Assembly: GCF_004010195.1 (NCBI RefSeq)
Contig: NC_057753.1
Coordinates: 10,503,159 to 10,538,771, forward strand
Direction of reading: 5' to 3'
DNA: 35,613 bases
Source of the DNA: Chiloscyllium plagiosum
Taxonomy: Eukaryota
Positions 3,759-34,260 of this stretch are shown piece by piece; the first letter of the stretch is position 1; every line of letters starts with the position of its first letter. The notes beneath the pieces are model-generated. The model was not told the DNA's origin, searched no databases, and was given only the letters and a program-made list of their open reading frames with translations. A program made the position numbers and the translations under genes.

Positions 3759-3940
3759 AAACAAATAAACTTACCAAGTTAAGGAAGAAAAGCCGGTCAT
3801 TGTCCTCAACAGAGAGACCAAGTCAGCCTTCCCAGAGACTGCCCCCTCCCTGGTTTCATTTCCTTTCAGTTCATCAAACTGAAGAGTTAAACCCCAGACT
3901 GGGAAAGGAAATAGAAAAGGGGGCGAGAAAAGAGAGTGCC

Positions 3941-4262
3941 GTACTCACAGAAGAAGGAAGTTGCAGTCTGGGGTAAAGATCAATCTTCATATAGAGAGCA
4001 GCAGCAGCAACTTTAGAAGCTCATGGTCCAACTTCCGCGTTCAGACATTAGGGACCTCTGATTGGCGGGAGGACCAGACTCCTTCCGGTCCTCCAGAGAT
4101 TCCAATTGGCCTACGATGGACTACCGTGACACAATGGTCTTTGACCAATAGTAGACAAGCGGTTTGGAACATGGAATCGTCATCGGCCGGATCTGCAGAA
4201 TGTTCCCGCCCCCTTGTGTTGGACGTCACAATGCGGAAGAAGGCCCGTCAGTTTTTCGACCG
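3941..4262 (-). promoter_or_regulatory. Putative promoter and non-coding first exon of ZNF-A (module copy 1)
   Basis: Minus-strand donor ct|GTGAGT (GT at 3948-3947); ETS cores ACTTCCGC 4031 and CTTCCGGT 4082; CCAAT boxes 4061, 4102-4109, 4145; GC box 4205; CRE-like GACGTCA 4222; locally CpG-rich. Confidence 0.65.
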
Positions 4263-6630: not shown

Positions 6631-6641
6631 TAATATTTCAA

Positions 6642-6890
6642 GAACGGCCTCTCCCCTCTGCGACTGAGCTGATGAATCTCCAGTGCCGACAGGGAATGGA
6701 ATCCCTTCCCTCAATCCCCACATTTTCACGACTTCTCTGCAGTTTTGATGTCCTTTTGGATCTGTGTTTCTGATGAACAATTGAAAGTATGACCACAGTC
6801 AGGAAACTGTCCCCCCCCCACTGCTGCGAATAGTGTAATGTTTCTTCATTCTGCGTAATTGGTTCCCACAGTCAGCTCACGGGGACACTC
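6642..6890 (-). pseudogene. C2H2 ZNF pseudogene fragment (first finger and upstream exon sequence)
   Basis: Minus strand 6740-6642 translates AEKS*KCGD*GKGFHSLSALEIHQLSRRGERPF, a homologue of finger 1 with two stops; flanked by CR1 fragments. Confidence 0.75.
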
Positions 6891-7023
6891 TCTCAACAAG
6901 AGGAAACGACATACAAAAGTTGAGCACCACACTCTTTTTCACTGGAGCACAAGAGGTTCAGAGGTGACCGTATAGAGGTTAATAAATCATGAGGGGTATA
7001 TAATCATGGTTAATAAACCATGT

Positions 7024-7525: not shown

Positions 7526-7779
7526 GGGAGGGGGCGAAATCTGTTCACTTGTAGCAACTGGAGTGAACCCAGGGAGGGAGCAGACTCTGCAAACTCTGGT
7601 ATGTGTCTTAATTACCTGGGTGAGGAAGGATAGGATGGGGCTCTTTTGCCCATCATGCCAGAGTCTGAGGGGGTGACATTATGGACTTAGAAAATCATGA
7701 GGGGCATGGATAGGGTAAATAGACATGATCTTTTCCTTGGGATGGGGTCCTAGTGGTCGCAGTAGTCTGGCTGTCATAA

Positions 7780-9636: not shown

Positions 9637-10090
9637 TTATAGCAAAGGCCAATCCATCCTTACCTGCACATCCCTGGGCACTATGGGTAATTTAGCATGG
9701 TCAATCCACCCTAACCTACACCCTAATCTATAAATTACCTTCTCAAGAATGTAATTTAAATGCAGAGCTTTTCTAAGAAAATTGTACTATTTGCATTGTA
9801 CCCTGACAAGTCAGTGACTTTGGGAGGAGAACAAAAATTGGAATTTCTACTTGAATATTGATGCTCCCATTTATATCTCTCAAAAGGAGATTGTTTGATC
9901 CATCAAATTTGTAATGGCTGTTTTGATGAAGTATTTCCCTGTATCCACATATATCTGGAATAATTTCCTTTTCAAGAATTCTGCAAGTACCTTTGCCATT
10001 TACTGGTTCCATCATCCCTTCAAGATCATTTCAAATCGCAACAACTTGCATATTTCTTAAAAATTAAATAATCTTACCCCCAGCTCAACC

Positions 10091-10572
10091 CCCTTTTTAA
10101 AAGTGTCTGCACTATTTCCAACATGGTCATGCTTTTTAAATATTACCCCGTACTTTTAATTACGACCAAGTCTCTTTAGATTTCAATGTATGTTTTTAAA
10201 TAGAAAAATACCCCTTTACATGTAGCTAAGCCCTTTAAAAGTCTTACGTTCCTCTAAGCGCAATTTTGCCTCCCGACAATGTATATTTACTCCTTTAGAC
10301 CTGCCTGTCTCTTAAAAGGATATTTCTGCTTGTAACTAGGGCAACGTCTCTTCGAAATATAGATTCATTTAGATAGGTCTGCGGCACTTTACATATTAAG
10401 ATATCCCTTTGAATGTGCTCACATCCCTTTGAAATATACTTTTGTCTAGTTAAGTCTATTTATTTGCAGAAATATCTAGTTAAAATGTCCATATCTCTTT
10501 AAAATGCAGATTCCCCCCCTTAGATATGACTATGTTTCGTTATTATGTCGGAATATCTCTTTACATTAAGCC
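10091..10572. repeat. Cryptic ~20-bp periodic array of about 24 units (core RTCYCTTTAVAT with variable spacers)
   Basis: Core T|R steps at 10098, 10137, 10157, 10177, 10197, 10217, 10236, 10255, 10296, 10313, 10333, 10353, 10370, 10390, 10410, 10430, 10451, 10481, 10500, 10521, 10541 and 10562, plus weak units near 10118 and 10275. Confidence 0.75.
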
Positions 10573-10659
10573 ATGAGCTTTCACAATGTAGACAGGGCTA
10601 CTCGAAACGTGGCAGTGTCCCCCCTGCAGCTGCAGAGCGAGACAGGAGAGTTTGTTTTT

Positions 10660-10960
10660 GTGAATGAGCAGTTGTAGCGCGAGGTGGCTGTTGCTTGGTG
10701 ACGGTGAGGTTCCCCGGCCCCGCCCATCCCCCCGTGCAGACGTCACGCGGGGGCGAAGGCGGTTGGGAGGAGAAGTCGCTCGAGCGGGGAAGCGGCGGGA
10801 GGGCGGCCGTTAGGAAAACGTCCCCGTGCGGCCCGGGGCAGACACCCGTCACTGGGCACCGCCGCCTTCCTGGCGCAGCTGCTGTGTCACAGCCACACCG
10901 GCCGGCTGTACAGTGGGCAGGAGCCGGTGAGCATTCTGGAGGCGGATGGGGTTAAGGGCC
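10660..10960. promoter_or_regulatory. CpG-rich promoter-like island with no linked gene visible
   Basis: High GC and CpG; X-box-like GTTGCTTGGTGAC 10690-10702, GC box GGCCCCGCCC 10716-10725, CRE-like GACGTCA 10739-10745. Confidence 0.6.
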
Positions 10961-10971
10961 TGCTTGGGAAC

Positions 10972-12410
10972 TCATGGACCTGACGAGGGAGTCGCGGAGG
11001 GAGTGGTCTTTTCGGAACACTGATAGGGGAGGGGAGGGAAATATATCCCTGGTGATAGGGTCCGTTTGGAGGTGGCAGAAATGACGACGAATGATACGAT
11101 GTATATGGAGATTGGTGCGGTGGTAGGTGAGGACCAGTGGGGTTCTGTCCTGGTGGCGTCTGGAGGGGCGGGGCTCAAGGGCGGAGGAGTGGGAAGTGGA
11201 AGAGATGCGGTGGAGGGCACCGTCGACCACGTCGGGGGGGAAATTGGAGCAGGAAGTGGAGGAGATGCGGTGGAGAGCATCGTCGATCACGAGTGGGGTG
11301 AAATTGCTGTCTTTGAAGAAGGAGGTCATCTGGGTTGTTCGGTATTGGAACTGGTCCTCCTTGGAGCAGATGCGGCGGAGACGAAGGAATTGGGAATATG
11401 GGATTGCGTTTTTACAGGGGGCAGGGTGGGAGGAGGTGTAGTCGAGGTAGCTGTGGGAGTCTGTCGGTTTATAGTAAATGTCCGTGTTGATTCAGTCGCC
11501 CGAGACAGAAATAGAGGGGTCTAGGAAGGGGAGGGAGGAGTCTGAGACGGTCCAGGTAAATTTGAGGTCGGGGTGGAAGGTGTTGGTAAAGTGGATGAAC
11601 TGTTCAACCTCCTCGTGGGAGGCAGAATCCTGGTTGAAGAAGTTACAATTCTTCCGCCACCTTTGTCTCCGTGCCTACTTCAACCAGGACTCCCGCCCAC
11701 ACTCTGATGATCCCTTCTCCCGCCTCCAACACTCCCCATCTACCTGGACACCCCGTGCTGGCCTCTTACTTGCTCTCGATCTCTACATAGCCAACTGCCG
11801 CCGCGACATTAACCGCCTCAACTTCTCCACCCCTCTCACCCACTCCAACCTCTCACCCTCGCCGTGTCGAGGTAGGAGGAGATGAGTTCGGTTGGGCAGG
11901 AGCAGGCTGAGACGATGGGTCGTCCGGGGCAGTCAGGTTTGTGGATTTTGGGCAGGAGGTAGAAACGGGCAGTGCGGGGTTGTGGGACTATGAGGTTGGA
12001 GGCGGTGGATGGGAGATCCCCTGAGGTGATGAGGTTATGGACGGTCTGGGAGATGATGGTTTGGTGGTGGGAGGTGGGGTCATGGTCAAGGGGGCAGTAG
12101 GTGTTTGGCCAGCGGTGTAAAGGTCGGTGCGCCAAACTACTACTGCGCCTCCCTTATCTACCGGTTTAAAAGTGAGGTTGGGGTTGGAACGGAGGGAGTG
12201 GAGGGCTGCACATTCCGAGGGTGAGAGGTTGGAGTGGGTGAGAGGGGTGGAGAGGTTGAGGCGGTTAATGTCGCAGCAGCAGTTGGCTTATGAAGAGATC
12301 GAGGGCAGGTAAGAGGCCAGCACGGGGTGTCCAGGTGGATGGGGTGTGTTGGAGAGGGTGGGCGAGAATCCTGGTTGAAGAAGTAGGCGCGAAGGCGGCG
12401 GAAGAATTGT
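10972..12410. mobile_element. Scrambled Neptune-type PLE ORF fragments (RT N-terminus and thumb region) on both strands
   Basis: Peptides FYLLPKIHKPDCPGRPIVS (-), FFRHLCLRAYF (+) and TPLVLTYH...IFPSPPLSVFRKDHSLRDSLVRS (-); 11625-11860 and 12215-12410 are inverted copies. Confidence 0.85.
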
Positions 12411-12989: not shown

Positions 12990-13270
12990 CTGTGTCACCA
13001 AAACATTGGGCATGTTCCTCGCTGTTGGCAGAAAGGGGCAAGATCTACTTTTGATGGACCAATAAGGAGCACTGGAGGACAGGAAGGAAACTTGTCCTCT
13101 TGCCAATTGTCCTCCCCTATTGTCTGAATGTGGAAGTTGAACCATGAGCTTCTGAAGCTCCTGCTCCTCTCTCTGTCTGAAAATTGAGCTTCACCCCAGA
13201 CTGCGACTTCCTTCCTCTGTCCAACATCTGAGAGTATAGCACACTCTTTTCTCGCCCCCTTTTCCATCTA
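12990..13270 (+). promoter_or_regulatory. Inverted degenerate promoter and first-exon module (copy 2)
   Basis: Reverse complement of the 24140-24420 module; donor mutated GT->GA at 13230-13231. Confidence 0.5.
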
Positions 13271-13389
13271 TGTTTCATTCTGGGGTTCAATTGTCGACTT
13301 GGAGCAACTGAAAGGAAAAGGAGTGAATGCAGGGTGGGGAACAGCCTCAGGAAAATTTGGTCCAGGTCTGTGTCTCAATTGGCAAAATA

Positions 13390-13880: not shown

Positions 13881-14699
13881 GTTAGCAAATACAGTACCCC
13901 AATGTGAAGTTATAGCCTTTGCTGTGGAAAAAAAAGCAGAAAGGAGGTGTATTGTTTAAATGGTGATATATTTGGGTGTGGACAAAGTGAAGACTGGAAA
14001 CCAGAGTCAAAATGTGTGGTGCTGGAAAAGCACAGCAGGTCAAGCAGCATCCTAGGAGCAGAAGAGTCAAAGTTTCTGGCACGAGCCCTTCATCAGGAAC
14101 GATGTGTGGATGTCCGAAGGGGTGGCAGCGTCCTTCTGTGCCAGTTGTCAGATAAGTGCAGTAGGCAATGAGCAAGACAAGTGGTGTATTAGCAAGAGGA
14201 ATTGAGTTTAGAAGTGGGGATGTCTTCCTGCAGTTAGGGGGACATTGAATATATTCAAGGCTGAGTTCGTCTGATTTTTGAACAACAAAGAAGTGGATGT
14301 TTATGGGGAAAGGCAAGAAAATTGTTTTAAGACCGGTACAGAACAGTTACAGAGTCAAACCCTTTTGCACCCTCTCCAAAGCATCCACATCCTTTTGGAA
14401 ATCTGGCGACCGGAATTGTACGCAGTATTCCAAATGTGGCCGAACCAAAATCTTATACTACGTGACCTGCCAACTCTTGTACTCAATACTCCATCCAATG
14501 ATGGAAAGCATGCTGTATGCCACCTTGACCAGTTCTTTTTTTCCACAACAAAGGCTACAACTTCACACTGTCGAACTGCATTTGCCATGTGTTTGCTAAT
14601 TGAGGCACAGACCTAGACCAACATTTCCTGACTCTGTCCCCTCCCTGGATACACCACCTTTCTTTTCAGTTGCTGCAAGTCAACAATTGAACCCCAGAA

Positions 14700-14960
14700 T
14701 GAAACATAAATGGAAAAGGGGGTGAGAAAGTACTATACTCACAGATGGTGGATAGAGGAAGGAAGTTGTCATCTGGGGTGGAGATCAATCTTCGTGCAGA
14801 GAGAGAGGAGCAGCAGCTTAAGTAGTTAACCTTCCACATTCAGTCAATAGGGGGGCTCTGATTGGCAGGAGGACCAGGCTCCTTGCGGTCCTCCCTGGCC
14901 TCTCATTGGTCCATTGGAAGAATGATTCACACCGTTTCTGCAGACAACGAAGAGAATGGT
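14700..14960 (-). promoter_or_regulatory. Degenerate promoter and first-exon module (copy 3)
   Basis: Aligns to copies 1 and 4. Donor intact (14742-14741), ATTGG at 14861 and 14905, ETS cores mutated. Confidence 0.5.
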
Positions 14961-14964
14961 AAAT

Positions 14965-15280
14965 CTTTACTGAACCCTCTCTAATAGAATTCTTCCTATT
15001 ACAGGGCCACCAGAACTGTTCTCAGTACTCTAAAACTGGCCTCATCAACATCCTGTACAACCTAAACATGATGTCCCAACTCCTCTACTCAAATGGTGTG
15101 AACAATTAAGGTAAGTTTGCTGAATGCCTTCTTAGCCAACCTCCCAACCTGTGATGCAACTTTCAATGAACTATGTGCCTGAACCTCCCCATATCCCTTT
15201 GTTCTACGACACAACCCAGGGCCCTAACATTAACTGTACAAGTCCTGCCTGCACTTATTTTAGCAAAATACAACCCCTTG
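14965..15280 (-). mobile_element. CR1 RT fragment
   Basis: Homologous to 29260-29560 and, inverted, to 8640-9100. Confidence 0.7.
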
Positions 15281-16474: not shown

Positions 16475-17191
16475 TCAGTTTCCCTGCAATGGCACATGAA
16501 CCCGCTGGTGCCTCCGCAGGTGAGAGGACTGGGTAAAGCCCTTCCCGCACTCAGGGCAGCTAAAGGGCCTCTCCCCCGTGTGAACGCGCCGGTGCCTCAA
16601 GAGTGCAGAGGTCTGTGTAAATCCCTTCCTGCACTCGGGGCAGCTGAAGGGCCTCTCCCCGGAGTGGACCCGCTGGTGTGTCAGCAGGGCGAAGGCCTGC
16701 GTAAAGCCCTTCCCGCACTCCGGGCAGCTAAAGGGCCTCTCCCCCGTGTGGACTCGCCAGTGTATCAGCAGGGTGGAGGCCTGGGTAAAGCCCTTCGCGC
16801 ACTCGGGACAGCTGAAAGGCCTCTCCCCGGTGTGTACCCGCTGGTGGGTCAGGAGGGCGGAGGAATTGCTGAAAGCCTTCCCGCACTCGGGGCAGGGGAA
16901 TGGCCTCTCCCCCGTGTGGACACGCTGGTGCCTTAGCAGGGCAGAAGAATTGCTGAAGGCCTTCCCGCACTCGGGGCAGCTGAAGGGCCTCTCCCCCGTG
17001 TGGATCCGCTGGTGGGCCAGCAGGTGGGATGAATTGCTGAAGCCCTTCCCGCACTCGGGGCAAGAAAATGGCCTCTCCCCGGTGTGACTGCGCCGATGAG
17101 TCTCCAGGACAGACGGGGCACAGAAGCCTTTCCCGCAGTCGCCACACTTCCATGGTTTCTCCATGGGGCAGGATTCCTCAGGTTTTTCCAT
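16475..17191 (-). CDS. Tandem C2H2 zinc-finger protein ZNF-B (238 aa; 8 fingers)
   Basis: Eight C2H2 fingers with TGERP linkers (one SGERP). First ATG at 17191 is in strong Kozak context (gccATGG); the track start at 17215 is TTG. Confidence 0.9.
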
Positions 17192-17584
17192 GGCCGAAGC
17201 TTCAGCCGCACACAAACACGTGTAGAATCCCTCCCCGGCGTGAATTCATTTCAAGCTGTATAACCGTTTCAGGCTCCACACAGTGCGCTCTCTCATCCAG
17301 TCCCACGGATGCTGAAATCGTACTGAAACAGGAACCAAAATGCTTTGCTCCTTCTCACTGAATCATAGTTGAAAACCGTTGTGGTCCCGATGGATTGAGT
17401 GACTGTCAGACATTGATGTCAAAGCAAGGTCTACAGACACTGGAGAGCCAGAGTTGAAAAGTGCGGCGCTGGAAAAGCACAGCAGGTCAGGCAGCTGCTC
17501 AGAGGAGCAGGAGAGTCTACGGTTACAGGCCTCAGTCCTTCACCTGTTGATTTTGAAACTTCCGTCTTCAGATCTTCAAATACT

Positions 17585-17822
17585 CTGTAAAAAGAGACTA
17601 TAAAAGTCAATGTCAGTCCAGGGTATAAAAGAAAAGATAAAGTAAAAACAGAAAAGAGATCTACTCCACTTCCTTCCCAATCTCTATCCTTCCGTCCCTC
17701 CTGGGTAATTAAGACAAATACCTGAGTTTGCAGAGTCTGCTCTCTCCCTTGATTCACTCTGGTTGCTTCAAGTAAACAGATTTCACCCCACCTTTCCCTC
17801 TCTGTCTCTCTCTCTCTCTCCA
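17585..17822 (-). other. Putative 5' UTR exon (about 17822-17722) and short intron (17721-17585) of ZNF-B
   Basis: Homologous to 33990-34090; donor cag|GTATTT, acceptor tctttttacAG at 17586-17585. Upstream sequence is CR1. Confidence 0.55.
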
Positions 17823-23487: not shown

Positions 23488-24035
23488 TGGTCTTATCTAC
23501 ATGGGGGAGACCAAGCCTAAACTTGGAAATGGTTCGCTGACCATCACAGCTAGGTCGACAGAGGCTGACCAGACCTCCCAGTCACCACCCATTTTATTTC
23601 CCTTTCCCACTCCCTTTCTGACATGACCACCTTTGGTCTTGTCCATTGCCACAATGAATCAAACCGCAAATTGGAGGAACAACACTTCATCTTCCGCCTG
23701 TGCAGCCTACAGCACAGAGAACTCAACTTTGACTTCTCCAATTTCAAATAACCTCCCTTCCGATCTCCTAACTCCCTTCCCAGGCCCTCCGCCCTCCTCC
23801 TCCCTTCCATTTCTCCCTGCCACCAACCATATTCTTTCCTCCCACTGACCAACCAGGTCATGCCCTCTACCGGTCATCACCTATCCCCACTTCACCACCC
23901 TGCCCCCAGCACCTCCTTTACCTGCAGCTCACACACATCCCAGTCCTTGAAGAAGGGTTACACCCAAAAAGTTTACTTCTGCACCTCCTGATGCTGCCTG
24001 GCTTGCTGTGTTCTTCCAGCCTCCTTCCTGTCTAT
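23488..24035 (+). mobile_element. Neptune-type PLE 3' fragment with TSD
   Basis: CGLIYMGETK GIY-YIG remnant; TSD TTTGCCAATTG at 23477-23487 and 24036-24046. Confidence 0.8.
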
Positions 24036-24139
24036 TTTGCCAATTGCGACATAGAGATGGTTCAACTTTTCCAGAATCTGACCCCACCCAGGATTCACTC
24101 CCTTTCCTGTCTGTTGCTGAAGCCCAAAATAAAAAAAAA

Positions 24140-24470
24140 AGGAAAGGGGGTGAGAAAAATAGAGTGCCGTACTCACAGATGTTGGACAGAGGTAGGAAGT
24201 TGTTGTCTGGGGTGAAGCTCAATCTTGATTCAAAAAGAGATGAGCAGCAGCTTCAGCTTCAGAAGCTCATGGTCAAACTTCCGCATTCAGAGAGTGGGGC
24301 ATTCTGATTGGAAGGAGGACCAGTCTCCTTCCGGTCCTCCACGTTCTTCTATTGGTCCATCGGAAGAGGGTCACGCGCCTTCTCTGCGACAATGAGGAGT
24401 TTGTGCAGTGATTTGCTGACACCGCCGAGCACGCGCACTATGCTCTGCGGATACGCTGCCGTTCTTGACT
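24140..24470 (-). promoter_or_regulatory. Paralogous promoter and first-exon module (copy 4, motifs intact)
   Basis: Aligns to 3915-4110. Donor GT at 24176-24175, ETS at ~24277, 24328 and 24361, ATTGG at 24307 and 24351; CpGs retained. Confidence 0.6.
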
Positions 24471-27659: not shown

Positions 27660-28228
27660 GACAAAATTAAAAATCACAACACCAGGTTATTGTCCAGGAG
27701 ATGTATTTGGAAGCACTAGCTTTTGGAGTGGTTGTGGAGAATGAGGTCATGATCACAGAATTTACATCCAAACGAGTCCAGTGTCATGGAGATGTGATTC
27801 ACTAAACAATTTTAGATTAAATCTTTCACCTTTTAAAATTTGTTTCTGTTCCTTGCAATGTTAATCCCAGAACTTGTTTTAAATTACCTTCTCAGGATAA
27901 TTCTAAAATGTCAGTCAACATTGGGACACAGACAGAATTCACACCTACTATTAGAAAAGCTCTGCATTGAAATTACATTCTTGAGAATGTTATTTAAAAC
28001 AAGTTCTGGGATTAACATACCAAAACACAGACACCCATTCTAAAAGATGAAAGATTTAATCTAAAATTGTTTAATATATCACATCTCCATGACACTGTAC
28101 TCCTTTGACTATAAATTCTGTGATCGTGATCTCATTCTCCACAACCACCTGATGAAGGAGCAGTGCTCCGAAAGCTAGTGCTTCCAAACAAATCTGTTGG
28201 ACTTAGTGTTGTGTAATTTTTAAACTTT
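27660..28228. mobile_element. Inverted pair of a further PLE-like family 3' repeat (family B)
   Basis: About 27660-27900 is the reverse complement of about 27970-28228; related copies at 8360-8640 (-), 15300-15675, 19060-19190 (-), 29580-30215 and 34515-34950 (-). Confidence 0.65.
28146..28180 (+). ncRNA. Minimal hammerhead ribozyme motif (family B, CUA cleavage triplet)
   Basis: cac-CTGATGA-a-ggagc[agt]gctcc-GAAA-G-CTA-gtg. Confidence 0.72.
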
Positions 28229-28239
28229 GGCCATATGAT

Positions 28240-28700
28240 AAATTACCTATAGTGCCCAGGGATATGCAGGTTAGGGTGGATTGGCTATGCTAAGTTACCC
28301 ATAGTGTTCACTGTTGTGCAGGTTCAGATGGATTGGTTGTACTAAATTCCCATAGTGTCCAGGGATGTGCAGGTTAGGGTGCTTTGGCCATGGGAAATTG
28401 CCCATTGTATCCAGGGATGTGTAGATGAGGGTGAACTGGCTATGCTAAATTGTCCCTTGATGCCCAGGGATGTACAGGTTAGGGTTGACCTTCTGTGCTA
28501 AATTGTCCCATAGTACCCAGGGATGAGCAGATGAGGATGAATTGGTCACACTAAATTACGCATAGTGTCCAGGGATGTTCAGGTTTGGGTGGATTAGCCA
28601 TGGGAAATACAGGGTAAGGGGGTGAAAATGGGTGAAATGCTCTTCGGAGGGCCATTGTGGACTCAATGGGCCGAATGTCGTGCTTCCACATTGTCTGAAT
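28240..28700 (+). repeat. SINE-derived minisatellite (about 7 x 52 bp) followed by the SINE 3' end
   Basis: Unit approximately ATAGTGTCCAGGGATGTGCAGGTTAGGGTGGATTGGCCATGCTAAATTGCCC, matching the V-SINE segment around 7183-7228. Confidence 0.8.
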
Positions 28701-31593: not shown

Positions 31594-32733
31594 TCAGTCC
31601 TGGGAGTGACCCACACCAGTGTCACCGGAGGAATCCGATTGTTGGGAGCGCTGGTGCCCCTGCTGGTGCTTCCGCAAGTTGCTGGAACATGCAAACCTGT
31701 GCCCGCACTCGGGGCAGGGGAAGGGCCTCTCCCCCGTGTGGACCCGCTGGTGTTTCCGCAGGTCGGAGGAATCACTGAAGGCTTTCCTGCATTTGGGGCA
31801 GCTAAAGGGCCTCTCCCCGGTGTGGACCCGCCAGTGGGTCTGCAGGGTGTCGACCCGGGTAAAGCCCTTCCCACACTCGGGGCAGCTGAAAGGCTTCTCC
31901 CCCGTGTGGATCCGCCGGTGCTCTAGCAGGTGAGAGGATTCGCTAAAGGCTTTCCCACACTCTGGGCACGGGAAGGGCCTCTCCCCCGTGTGGACCCGCT
32001 GGTGAGTCAGCAGGTGAGAGGACTCGCTGAAGGCCTTCCCGCACTCGGGGCATGGGAAGGGCCTTTCCCCCGTGTGGACCCGCCGGTGCCTCTGCAGGGA
32101 GGAGGAATCACTAAAGGCCTTCCCACACTCAGGGCAGCTGAAGGGCTTTTCCCCCGTGTGGACCCGCCGGTGCCTCTGCAGGTGGGAGGAATCGCTGAAG
32201 GCCTTCCCACACTCAGGGCAGCTGAAGGGCTTTTCCCCCGTGTGGACCCGCCGGTGCTTCACCATGTCAGAGGAATTGCTGAAAGCCTTCCCGCACTCGG
32301 GGCACAGGAAGGGCCTTTCCCCGGTGTGGACCCGTCGGTGGGCCACCAGGTGGGAGGCCTGGGTAAAGCCCTTCCTGCACTCAGGGCAGCTGAAAGGCCT
32401 CTCCCCCGTGTGGAACCGCTGGTGCTTCAGCAGGTGGGAGGACCGAATAAAGGCCTTCCCGCACTCAGGGCAGGAGAATGGCCTCTCCCCCGTGTGGACA
32501 CGCCGGTGATCCACCAGGGTGGAGGATTCGCTGAAGGCCTTCCCACACTCAGGGCAGGAGAATGGCCTCTCCCCGGTGTGACGGCGCCGATGACTCTCCA
32601 GGACACACGGAGCACGGAAGCCTTTCCCGCAGTCACCACACTTCCACGGTTTCTCCAAAGGGCGGGATTTCCTGGGTTTCTCCATGGCCGAAACGTCAGC
32701 CATAGAAAAGACTGCAGAGCCCTTCCCTGCCAT
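31594..32733 (-). CDS. Tandem C2H2 zinc-finger protein ZNF-C (379 aa; 12 fingers)
   Basis: Twelve C2H2 fingers. First ATG at 32733 (atcATGG); in-frame alternatives at 32703 and 32685, the latter homologous to the ZNF-B start. Confidence 0.9.
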   Translation of the reverse strand: MAGKGSAVFSMADVSAMEKPRKSRPLEKPWKCGDCGKGFRAPCVLESHRRRHTGERPFSCPECGKAFSESSTLVDHRRVHTGERPFSCPECGKAFIRSSHLLKHQRFHTGERPFSCPECRKGFTQASHLVAHRRVHTGERPFLCPECGKAFSNSSDMVKHRRVHTGEKPFSCPECGKAFSDSSHLQRHRRVHTGEKPFSCPECGKAFSDSSSLQRHRRVHTGERPFPCPECGKAFSESSHLLTHQRVHTGERPFPCPECGKAFSESSHLLEHRRIHTGEKPFSCPECGKGFTRVDTLQTHWRVHTGERPFSCPKCRKAFSDSSDLRKHQRVHTGERPFPCPECGHRFACSSNLRKHQQGHQRSQQSDSSGDTGVGHSQD

Positions 32734-33574
32734 GATTTCCACTTTCCAAGCCGTATCACTGTTTCAGGCCCAACACTCAGTGCATTGCAACAGTAGGGTC
32801 TCTCATCCAGTCCCACTGCTACTGAAAATGTACTAAAACAGGAACCAAAAAGCTTTGTTCCTTCTCACAGAATTGTACTCAAAAATCATTGTGGTCCCGA
32901 TGGATTGAGTGACTGTTAGACATTGATGTCAAAGTGAGGATTTCAGAAGCTGGAGGGTCAGTGTCAAAGGTACAGCACTGGGTCAGGCAGTATCCGAGGA
33001 GCAGGAGAGTTGACGTTTCGGGCATAAGTCCTTCATCTGTTGATTTTGAAACTTACGTCTTCAGATCTTCAAATACTCTGTAAATAGAGATTACAAAAGT
33101 CATTGCTGTCAGTCCGGGGTAGAAATTCAGAACAAGCAATTCTACTTTCTACAGAACATTATTTTATTTTGGTTATTCCACAGAATTGAAAGTACCATCC
33201 CACTCTCTCTCCCCCTCTGTTCTCACTCCGCTCTAACTAATTCCCCGGAAGGTGCTGATTCAGGATCTTACAGGGGCAGAAAAGCAAAAACGTCAAGACT
33301 GACATCTCTCTGAATTTTGGATACCTCCACCTGAAAGTTAATATCTTTCACAACACTGGGATCCTGCTGAGAGTGAGCAGGTCTGATTTTGGGAAGCAAA
33401 ATAAACTGTGTCAATTCAGTGTGAACCTGCAATACAGCTTCTTAAGGAACAACCAGACACAAAATGGTTAACGTCCCCCAGGAAGGGGAGAGTAAGCTGA
33501 GACATCTAGGCATTAACACTGACACCAGAGAGAAATTGAACATACAGACTTGGCAAACGTTAGTGGAAAGCCAA

Positions 33575-34019: not shown

Positions 34020-34260
34020 ACCTGAGTTTGCAGAGTCTGCTCCCTCCCTGGATTCACTCCATTTGCTACCAGTGAACAGGTTTCACCCCTTCCCTCTCCC
34101 TCCCTCCCTCCGAGGATGAGGAGTTGCCCAGGGAGTTTCACTCTGCAACTGACAGGGCCACTTCCGCGTTGTGACGCCATCGATACTCGCCGGCACGAGC
34201 CGAGGGGGCTGGGCTGAGGAGACCGACAGTGGGTTCCCGCACTGCGCCTCTGCTGCCCTG
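34020..34260 (-). promoter_or_regulatory. Putative promoter and 5' non-coding exon of ZNF-C
   Basis: Donor cag|GTTATG (GT at 34021-34020); ETS CCACTTCCGC 34158, TGACG 34172, YY1-like CGCCATC 34175; candidate acceptor tttacAG at 33079-33078. Confidence 0.6.

Follow-up and report, generated by a model that had tools for sequence, protein, structure and literature searches.

Upstream of a CpG-rich island in the genome of the shark Chiloscyllium plagiosum lies about 0.5 kb of DNA in which short AT-rich words recur roughly every 20 bp in a single orientation. Is this arrangement a working part of the adjacent promoter, or what is left of an old minisatellite? We addressed this question within the window, that is, the whole stretch of 35,613 nucleotides analyzed here (contig NC_057753.1, positions 10,503,159 to 10,538,771 of the forward strand); all coordinates below are window positions. 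The array is real and its context is established; its function is unproven and in part contradicted. The reading that we favor, with a probability of roughly 0.4, is that of an ancient 20-bp minisatellite, spread by promoter duplication and possibly retained, by constraint that is weak and redundant, as a row of low-affinity sites.

A degenerate 20-bp phased array

The 3-mer autocorrelation summed over lags 19-21 was 80 for 10091-10572, against a mean of 46 and a maximum of 68 for the best three-lag sums of 1000 dinucleotide shuffles, which confirms the ~20-bp phasing proposed in an earlier, sequence-only reading of this DNA. Harmonics also appeared at lags 39-41 and 59-61, and no 400-bp stretch elsewhere in the window showed comparable ~20-bp periodicity. 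A phased alignment delimited the degenerate array at 10091..10587, with 26 units, all on the + strand, and an unseeded 20-column fit recovered 25; about 24 had been counted earlier. The modal spacing is 20 bp and the mean period 19.4. In the unseeded fit, 11 of 24 steps are exactly 20 bp and 19 fall within 19-21; the runs of exact 20-bp steps noticed before, at 10137-10217 and 10370-10430, were found in place, and the phase slips at 10440-10490.

Each unit comprises an asymmetric 12-bp core, RTCYCTTTAMAW, and a weakly conserved spacer of ~8 bp. The core holds specific C/Y and R positions besides its A/T tracts. Twelve of the 26 units differ from it by at most two mismatches and 17 by at most three; sites with at most one mismatch occur at 13.9/kb in the array and 0.14/kb outside, a density to be read with the motif having been derived from the array. 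Mean pairwise identity in the unseeded fit is 0.52 for cores, 0.33 for spacers and 0.28 for random sequence, so that the spacers, earlier described as unrelated from unit to unit, are indeed far less alike than the cores but still exceed the random level. With head-to-tail units of fixed length (25-26 units, period 19.4-20), the array is a degenerate minisatellite. For a putative common ancestor of whole units, the spacers show this slight excess; uniform decay is rejected and biased decay is marginal (see below).

Neither TRF (score 30) nor an exact-seed repeat finder reported the array, Rfam returned 0 matches, and no notable open frame crosses the array or the island. A hairpin-protection model was rejected: single-strand folding of the array gave a z of -1.55, and 9 of 100 shuffles folded equally well.

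Two adjacent units at 10403..10435 (+ strand, starts 10403 and 10423) have identical 11-bp cores with CCTTTGAA, which we take to be a TCF/LEF-like motif. These units are present as had been pointed out and, being 20 bp apart, recall homotypic TCF/LEF site clusters; the array differs from such clusters in that A, not G, follows CTTT in 20 of its 26 units, and CTTTGWW matches only 2 of 26.

Genomic setting

The window is repeat-dense vertebrate DNA with three C2H2 zinc-finger ORFs on the - strand (1603-2187, 16475-17245 and 31594-32763) and a relic near 6641-6900. Promoter copies outnumber zinc-finger coding exons in it. A different, CCAAT-rich promoter/first-exon type is present in four copies (3829-4260, 13054-13386, 14592-14950 and 23887-24450) that are 71-79% alike, three on the - strand and one, CpG-depleted, on the + strand. 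A third promoter/first-exon type (7531-7616, 17660-17790 and 34020-34170) is found upstream of two zinc-finger genes with the acceptor exon that transcripts from the array promoter also use, which suggests first-exon swapping among family members. A 52-bp tandem of ~7 copies at 28234-28602 originated in the tail of a SINE-like repeat.

A multicopy promoter cassette

Among 24 listed runs, with holders in four coded organisms (organism D, with small shares, left uncounted), four sequencing runs (X1, X13, X16 and X21) were aligned to 9780-11000 at 80% likeness. From the DNA run X1, 528 contigs aligned to this region, one of which resembles the locus itself (9868-10383, 4 differences, depth 9.3). 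In X1, the ratio of summed depth to window-allele depth was ~1800 at 10821 and 180-370 over the right half of the array, against 39 at 10317; for the upstream flank it was 87. Summed depth is not a copy number, and all that we take from these ratios is that the array exists in tens to hundreds of copies and the core promoter in more. The majority (family) alleles are common to organisms A, B and C, and the island belongs to a multicopy promoter cassette found in at least three organisms.

Paralogous copies extend leftwards past the upstream flank (9790..10085, + strand), which is non-periodic and CpG-poor (CpG o/e 0.12). Behind the array, the proximal, TATA-less, CpG-rich promoter (10588..10764, + strand, CpG o/e 0.82) differs by ~3% from other copies and includes what we take to be a GC box at 10718-10725 and, at 10739-10746, GACGTCAC, presumably a CRE-like motif. 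It is followed by the first exon of the promoter family (10765..10926, + strand), with broad starts at ~10765-10782, and by a GT splice donor with the remaining stub of intron 1 (10927..10973, + strand), where X21 reads have loose ends. Neither TATA nor AATAAA occurs in 10588-10973, and the locus does not qualify as an LTR with U3 repeats.

Behind 10973 the other copies (X13, X1 and X21) diverge in sequence, and this copy is interrupted by a retroelement-like insert (10974..12410, no strand assigned) that matches other repeats of the window. The CpG-rich part of the island of the sequence-only reading that extends past 10973 is this inserted element and not promoter. The insert is presumably Penelope-like. 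It had no hit in Pfam; it matched clusters of the Atlas in which 42-57% of the members carry PF26215 (HTH_animal; score 0.96, low recognition), a match that might be taken as a lead only. It contains an inverted duplication (80.5%; 11645-11861 and 12216-12410) and a 60-bp tandem at 11192-11306. An inverted-repeat element family is represented to the left of this copy, at 9731-9776, and also at 27728-28148; judging by loose ends, a copy seen in organisms B and C has a member of the same family at 10325, within its array.

Among metagenome contigs, a 21-letter island pattern found three GC-rich loci, each by a match of only 24 bp, which we judged to be chance and not kinship with the cassette. 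A degenerate three-unit pattern found 18 loci in viral contigs, 0 of them alignable to the cassette; one viral contig (L020, ~300-800) has its own strong 20-bp repeat with similar CTTT words and does not align to the array.

Transcription and splicing

About 2/100 of the raw RNA run X21 was sampled, and 58 reads aligned. Letters that we take to be a template-switch adapter precede 10765, 10780 and 10782 in 7, 3 and 4 reads, respectively, which indicates broad + strand starts over 10765-10782; for single start sites, internal template switching at G runs may be an alternative. Behind the donor at 10927, three reads (agreement 0.71) enter a zinc-finger exon type (loose ends at 10926), five enter a LINE-like exon resembling 15006-15028, and 12 continue unspliced. 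The LINE-like fragment at 15006-15028 has a + strand AG acceptor and might serve this copy as a cryptic second exon. The exon entered by the three reads fits, with 1 mismatch (0/100 shuffles), the acceptor of a C2H2 coding exon (ORF 16475-17245) at 17564..17587 on the - strand, and a second acceptor of the same type, at 33057..33080 on the - strand, precedes the C2H2 ORF at 31594-32763. The support for splicing into zinc-finger exons is thin, namely the three reads and the acceptors before two zf-C2H2 ORFs.

A start, a first exon and a donor are thus all seen in paralogous copies, from which the reads derive, since 27 of 27 X21 reads at 10821 and 10823 carry the family alleles; these alleles are uninformative on this one copy among hundreds. 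Both acceptors are on the wrong strand for this copy, and no same-strand zinc-finger acceptor or exon for it exists within the window. The core promoter of this cut copy is well kept. We conclude that the cassette is a TATA-less promoter family, some members of which feed C2H2 zinc-finger transcripts. The promoter-like nature ascribed to the island is borne out, with reads of paralogues placing a promoter type there that fires away from the array, and the description of the island as an orphan fits this copy but not the family, which is a multicopy zinc-finger-gene promoter.

The array occupies ~180-680 bp upstream of the mapped starts. The listed holders carry no record of being RNA, and X16 is taken as RNA by guess; its depth reaches 10088 on exon 1 versus 2-13 across most of the array, which indicates that the array is barely transcribed.

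Divergence of units and of copies

The difference between core and spacer identity among units is 0.19, or 0.16 under the coarser search used for uniform-decay simulations. Uniform decay of a perfect 20-mer array gave 0.08-0.09 ± 0.03, and 0 of 490 runs reached 0.19; the 0.16 of the real array is likewise clearly higher than these values. With faster mutation of G/C and CpG, by contrast, the observed value was reached in 3, 0, 12, 7, 20, 15 and 1 of 45 runs under seven settings, in 68 of 1429 biased neutral runs with sampled parameters, and in 15 of 227 such runs matched for mean identity, GC and spacer GC; the summed 20/40/60 autocorrelation was reached by 5 of these 227. The earlier argument that a minisatellite should decay evenly fails once mutation is biased in this way, and the core/spacer contrast on which it was built stands above uniform decay but within reach of biased decay. 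The unit-versus-unit simulations are mild evidence against neutrality. In the matched runs the simulated age of the units is ~0.45 substitutions per site from a common unit (range 0.34-0.58). Compared with the ~12% between copies, this age points to one old 20-bp amplification, which would have taken place long before the cassette multiplied.

Between copies, 40 of the 153 family-versus-window differences were available, giving a comparison of low power within one lineage. Among those listed, 15 array differences fell in cores and 11 in spacers, where 64% would be expected in cores (P 0.54); cores do not change more slowly than spacers, as they would in a selected homotypic array, and the persistence of cores over spacers that had been claimed is not seen at this level. 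Five of the 15 listed core differences remain within the R, Y or M degeneracy. In 10 of the 15 the family allele fits the core better than that of this copy, which suggests that the alleles of this copy are derived, as both main models predict, so that the figure supports neither. No listed difference falls within 10385-10438, around the units with CCTTTGAA, a gap that is not significant (P 0.14-0.16).

Divergence from this copy in the listed contig pieces, once the self-like contig and four pieces spanning more than one zone are set aside, is 11.2% (79/703) in the flank, 12.9% (111/861) in the array and 3.1% (20/635) in the core promoter and exon 1. One organism B contig has 15/129 differences in its array part versus at most 4/128 in its proximal part (P 0.015). 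Some copies carry an insertion at 10325 (X13 and X16), some contigs skip 119 and 182 bp through the array, and contig depth over the left half of the array is below that of the flank. A single RNA contig of X16 is shorter by exactly one 20-bp step in the interval 10346 to 10388, a case seen by eye. At the level of individual bases, the array is not under strong constraint.

Much of this would be expected if a 20-bp minisatellite had decayed neutrally beside the ancestral promoter and had been copied along with it, its AT-rich cores outlasting the spacers through mutation bias and alignment ascertainment. Flank-like divergence of the array, the lack of depletion of listed differences in cores, the insertions and deletions in some copies and the 15 of 227 matched neutral runs that reach the contrast agree with such a passive relic. 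So does the dinucleotide at -1/0, which is TA in 8, TG in 5, CG in 4 and CA in 1 of 26 units, like a decayed CpG, and so does the position-specific mutability within a minisatellite monomer described for C. elegans in the available part of a 2026 preprint (10.64898/2026.08.08.743475). Passive decay accounts less well for the autocorrelation and the contrast, given that only 5 and 15 of 227 matched runs reach them, respectively; moreover, the age of the units would exceed that of the spread of the copies several times over, and a stretch of 500 bp would have escaped insertions amid a repeat-dense window. We regard a passive relic as possible, somewhat less probable than the reading that we favor.

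Helical geometry and CpG retention

The ~20-bp spacing had been interpreted as about two helical turns that keep successive cores near the same DNA face. Two turns of free B-DNA are 21 bp, more than the period of 19.4-20, and at 10.5 bp/turn phase does not survive across five successive units (local R 0.25-0.56 in the left two thirds). It persists over five units only near 10.0 bp/turn and on the left side (R 0.81-0.97), and even then is lost over the whole array (R 0.06). The same-face interpretation is not sustained. The WW/SS amplitude at 10.0 bp was 17.6 versus 10.2 ± 2.6, a significant value that 3 of 500 shuffles attain, as do 2 of 133 tiles of the window, whereas no W/S rhythm was found at 10.6 bp, where 164 of 500 shuffles reach the amplitude.

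The array has 10 CpGs, with an o/e of 0.70 versus 0.28 in 17 AT-rich tiles (P 0.008), and therefore likely lies in an unmethylated zone; the CpG-retaining zone starts at its left end. The insert beyond the start is CpG-retaining as well (o/e 0.95 versus 0.24-0.61 in five similar stretches). Retention on both sides may be the unmethylated halo of a live promoter.

If the 10-bp W/S rhythm itself were what is kept, the array might position or exclude two or three upstream nucleosomes and form a silencing barrier, as nematode PATCs may do. The amplitude at 10.0 bp, the five-unit phase on the left side and the coincidence of the left end of the array with the start of the CpG-retaining zone are consistent with such a chromatin element, and minisatellite-derived barriers are described for C. 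elegans in the available parts of two sources (PMC4947018; 10.64898/2026.08.08.743475). However, the 10.0-bp rhythm follows simply from the 20-bp repeat as its second harmonic, the lack of signal at 10.6 bp leaves intrinsic curvature unsupported, phase is lost over the whole array, and the core has specific C/Y and R positions beyond A/T tracts. We consider a chromatin element of this kind unlikely.

Possible transposon origin

The upstream part of the promoter could have been donated by an old DNA transposon, as its internal or subterminal repeats, whether those of a Helitron minisatellite or of a Kolobok-like end; we assume both likenesses, the latter from YYCTTTAA words, which match in 2 units. 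High copy number and the fact that the left end of the cassette is not seen would also fit. Yet the window holds no second copy of the array and no inverted partner, the start site and first exon are where conservation is highest, splicing leads to host zinc-finger exons, and the AATAAA and TATA of an LTR are lacking. No terminal inverted repeats or target duplication surround the cassette in the window, where both ends of this copy have been replaced by insertions. A transposon source appears very improbable.

A proposed redundant strip of low-affinity sites

The explanation that we prefer is weak, redundant constraint. After its early amplification, the array would have become the upstream module of one zinc-finger promoter class and would then have been duplicated with the promoter. 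It would have been kept as a strip of low-affinity sites for one putative sequence-specific factor. With ~25 interchangeable sites, the loss of a single site would be cheap, and such redundancy could allow near-neutral change in the short term while cores and the 20-bp step outlast spacers in the long term. A factor with a ~20-bp footprint is predicted to load head to tail and to help keep the upstream side of the promoter open. This redundancy makes the constraint model hard to separate from the passive relic.

Weak constraint is supported by the failure of uniform decay to give the contrast (0/490) and by the rarity of the autocorrelation among biased-neutral runs (5/227). The fixed place and single orientation upstream of the starts, the alleles shared by organisms A, B and C, the 5 of 15 core changes that conform to the degeneracy, the loss of one 20-bp step and CpG retention argue in the same direction. 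It is weakened by biased neutral decay, which attains the contrast in 15 of 227 matched simulations and in up to 20 of 45 under single settings, by the absence of core depletion among the listed differences together with flank-like divergence (12.9% versus 11.2%), and by the indels in the array, the lower depth of its left half and the CpG retention of the insert (0.95). The array may be a mere passenger; it changes as fast as neighboring DNA.

Comparison with known systems

The gypsy insulator of Drosophila, part of a retrotransposon, is a Su(Hw)-binding array of about a dozen sites with a known binder and function. The shark array shares with it a row of degenerate cores separated by variable AT-rich spacers; it differs in that its binder is only putative, whereas the gypsy array belongs to a retrotransposon and has a known one.

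The available parts of the sources describe PATCs as 10-bp periodic sequences that license germline expression in C. elegans (PMC4947018) and that derive from Helitron minisatellites by position-specific mutation (10.64898/2026.08.08.743475), so that uneven decay of a monomer needs no binding factor. Like the shark array, they consist of degenerate AT-rich DNA with a period related to the helix, plausibly derived from a worn minisatellite, at genes in fast-turnover regions. As far as these sources go, PATCs have a 10-bp A/T-tract period and no motif and lie mostly inside transcribed germline genes, whereas the array, known from sequence alone, has a 20-bp period and a 12-bp core and lies upstream of the start, where it is barely transcribed; its 10.0-bp W/S signal (3/500) is a harmonic of the 20-bp repeat, with none at 10.6.

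Zebrafish znf genes have sharp TATA and broad TATA-less promoter classes, according to the available text of two sources (10.1101/2021.08.09.455629; PMC10547256). Those on chromosome 4 resemble the present case in being a large tandem C2H2 family with few shared promoter architectures, one of them broad and TATA-less; they differ in that these texts distinguish only TATA/sharp and broad classes. In the available portions, the word "periodic" is absent from 10.1101/2021.08.09.455629, sharks are unmentioned in PMC10547256, and no such array appears in either of them or in PMC5690287.

By analogy, homotypic site arrays or PATC-type elements would come closest to the array in the way they work. 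We found no published description of it in a search of mostly open-access main texts; supplements might hold repeat-library entries, and the array may already be annotated in such a library as an unclassified shark repeat.

Implications

In a bolder version, which we consider improbable, shark zinc-finger clusters would have a promoter class with a built-in 0.5-kb phased docking array, present in hundreds of copies, that licenses genes in repeat-dense chromatin. The array would then be a vertebrate counterpart of PATC-type anti-silencing DNA, bound by a filament of one factor in 20-bp steps, possibly itself encoded by the cluster. Even as a mere relic, the array remains useful for marking one class of shark zinc-finger promoters. 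The finding bears on how, outside mammals and zebrafish, large zinc-finger families with fast turnover maintain active promoters among transposons. The cassette exists in tens to hundreds of natural replicates, some with damaged and some with undamaged arrays, which makes it directly testable, in shark assemblies and RNA data that already exist, whether the array works or hitchhikes.
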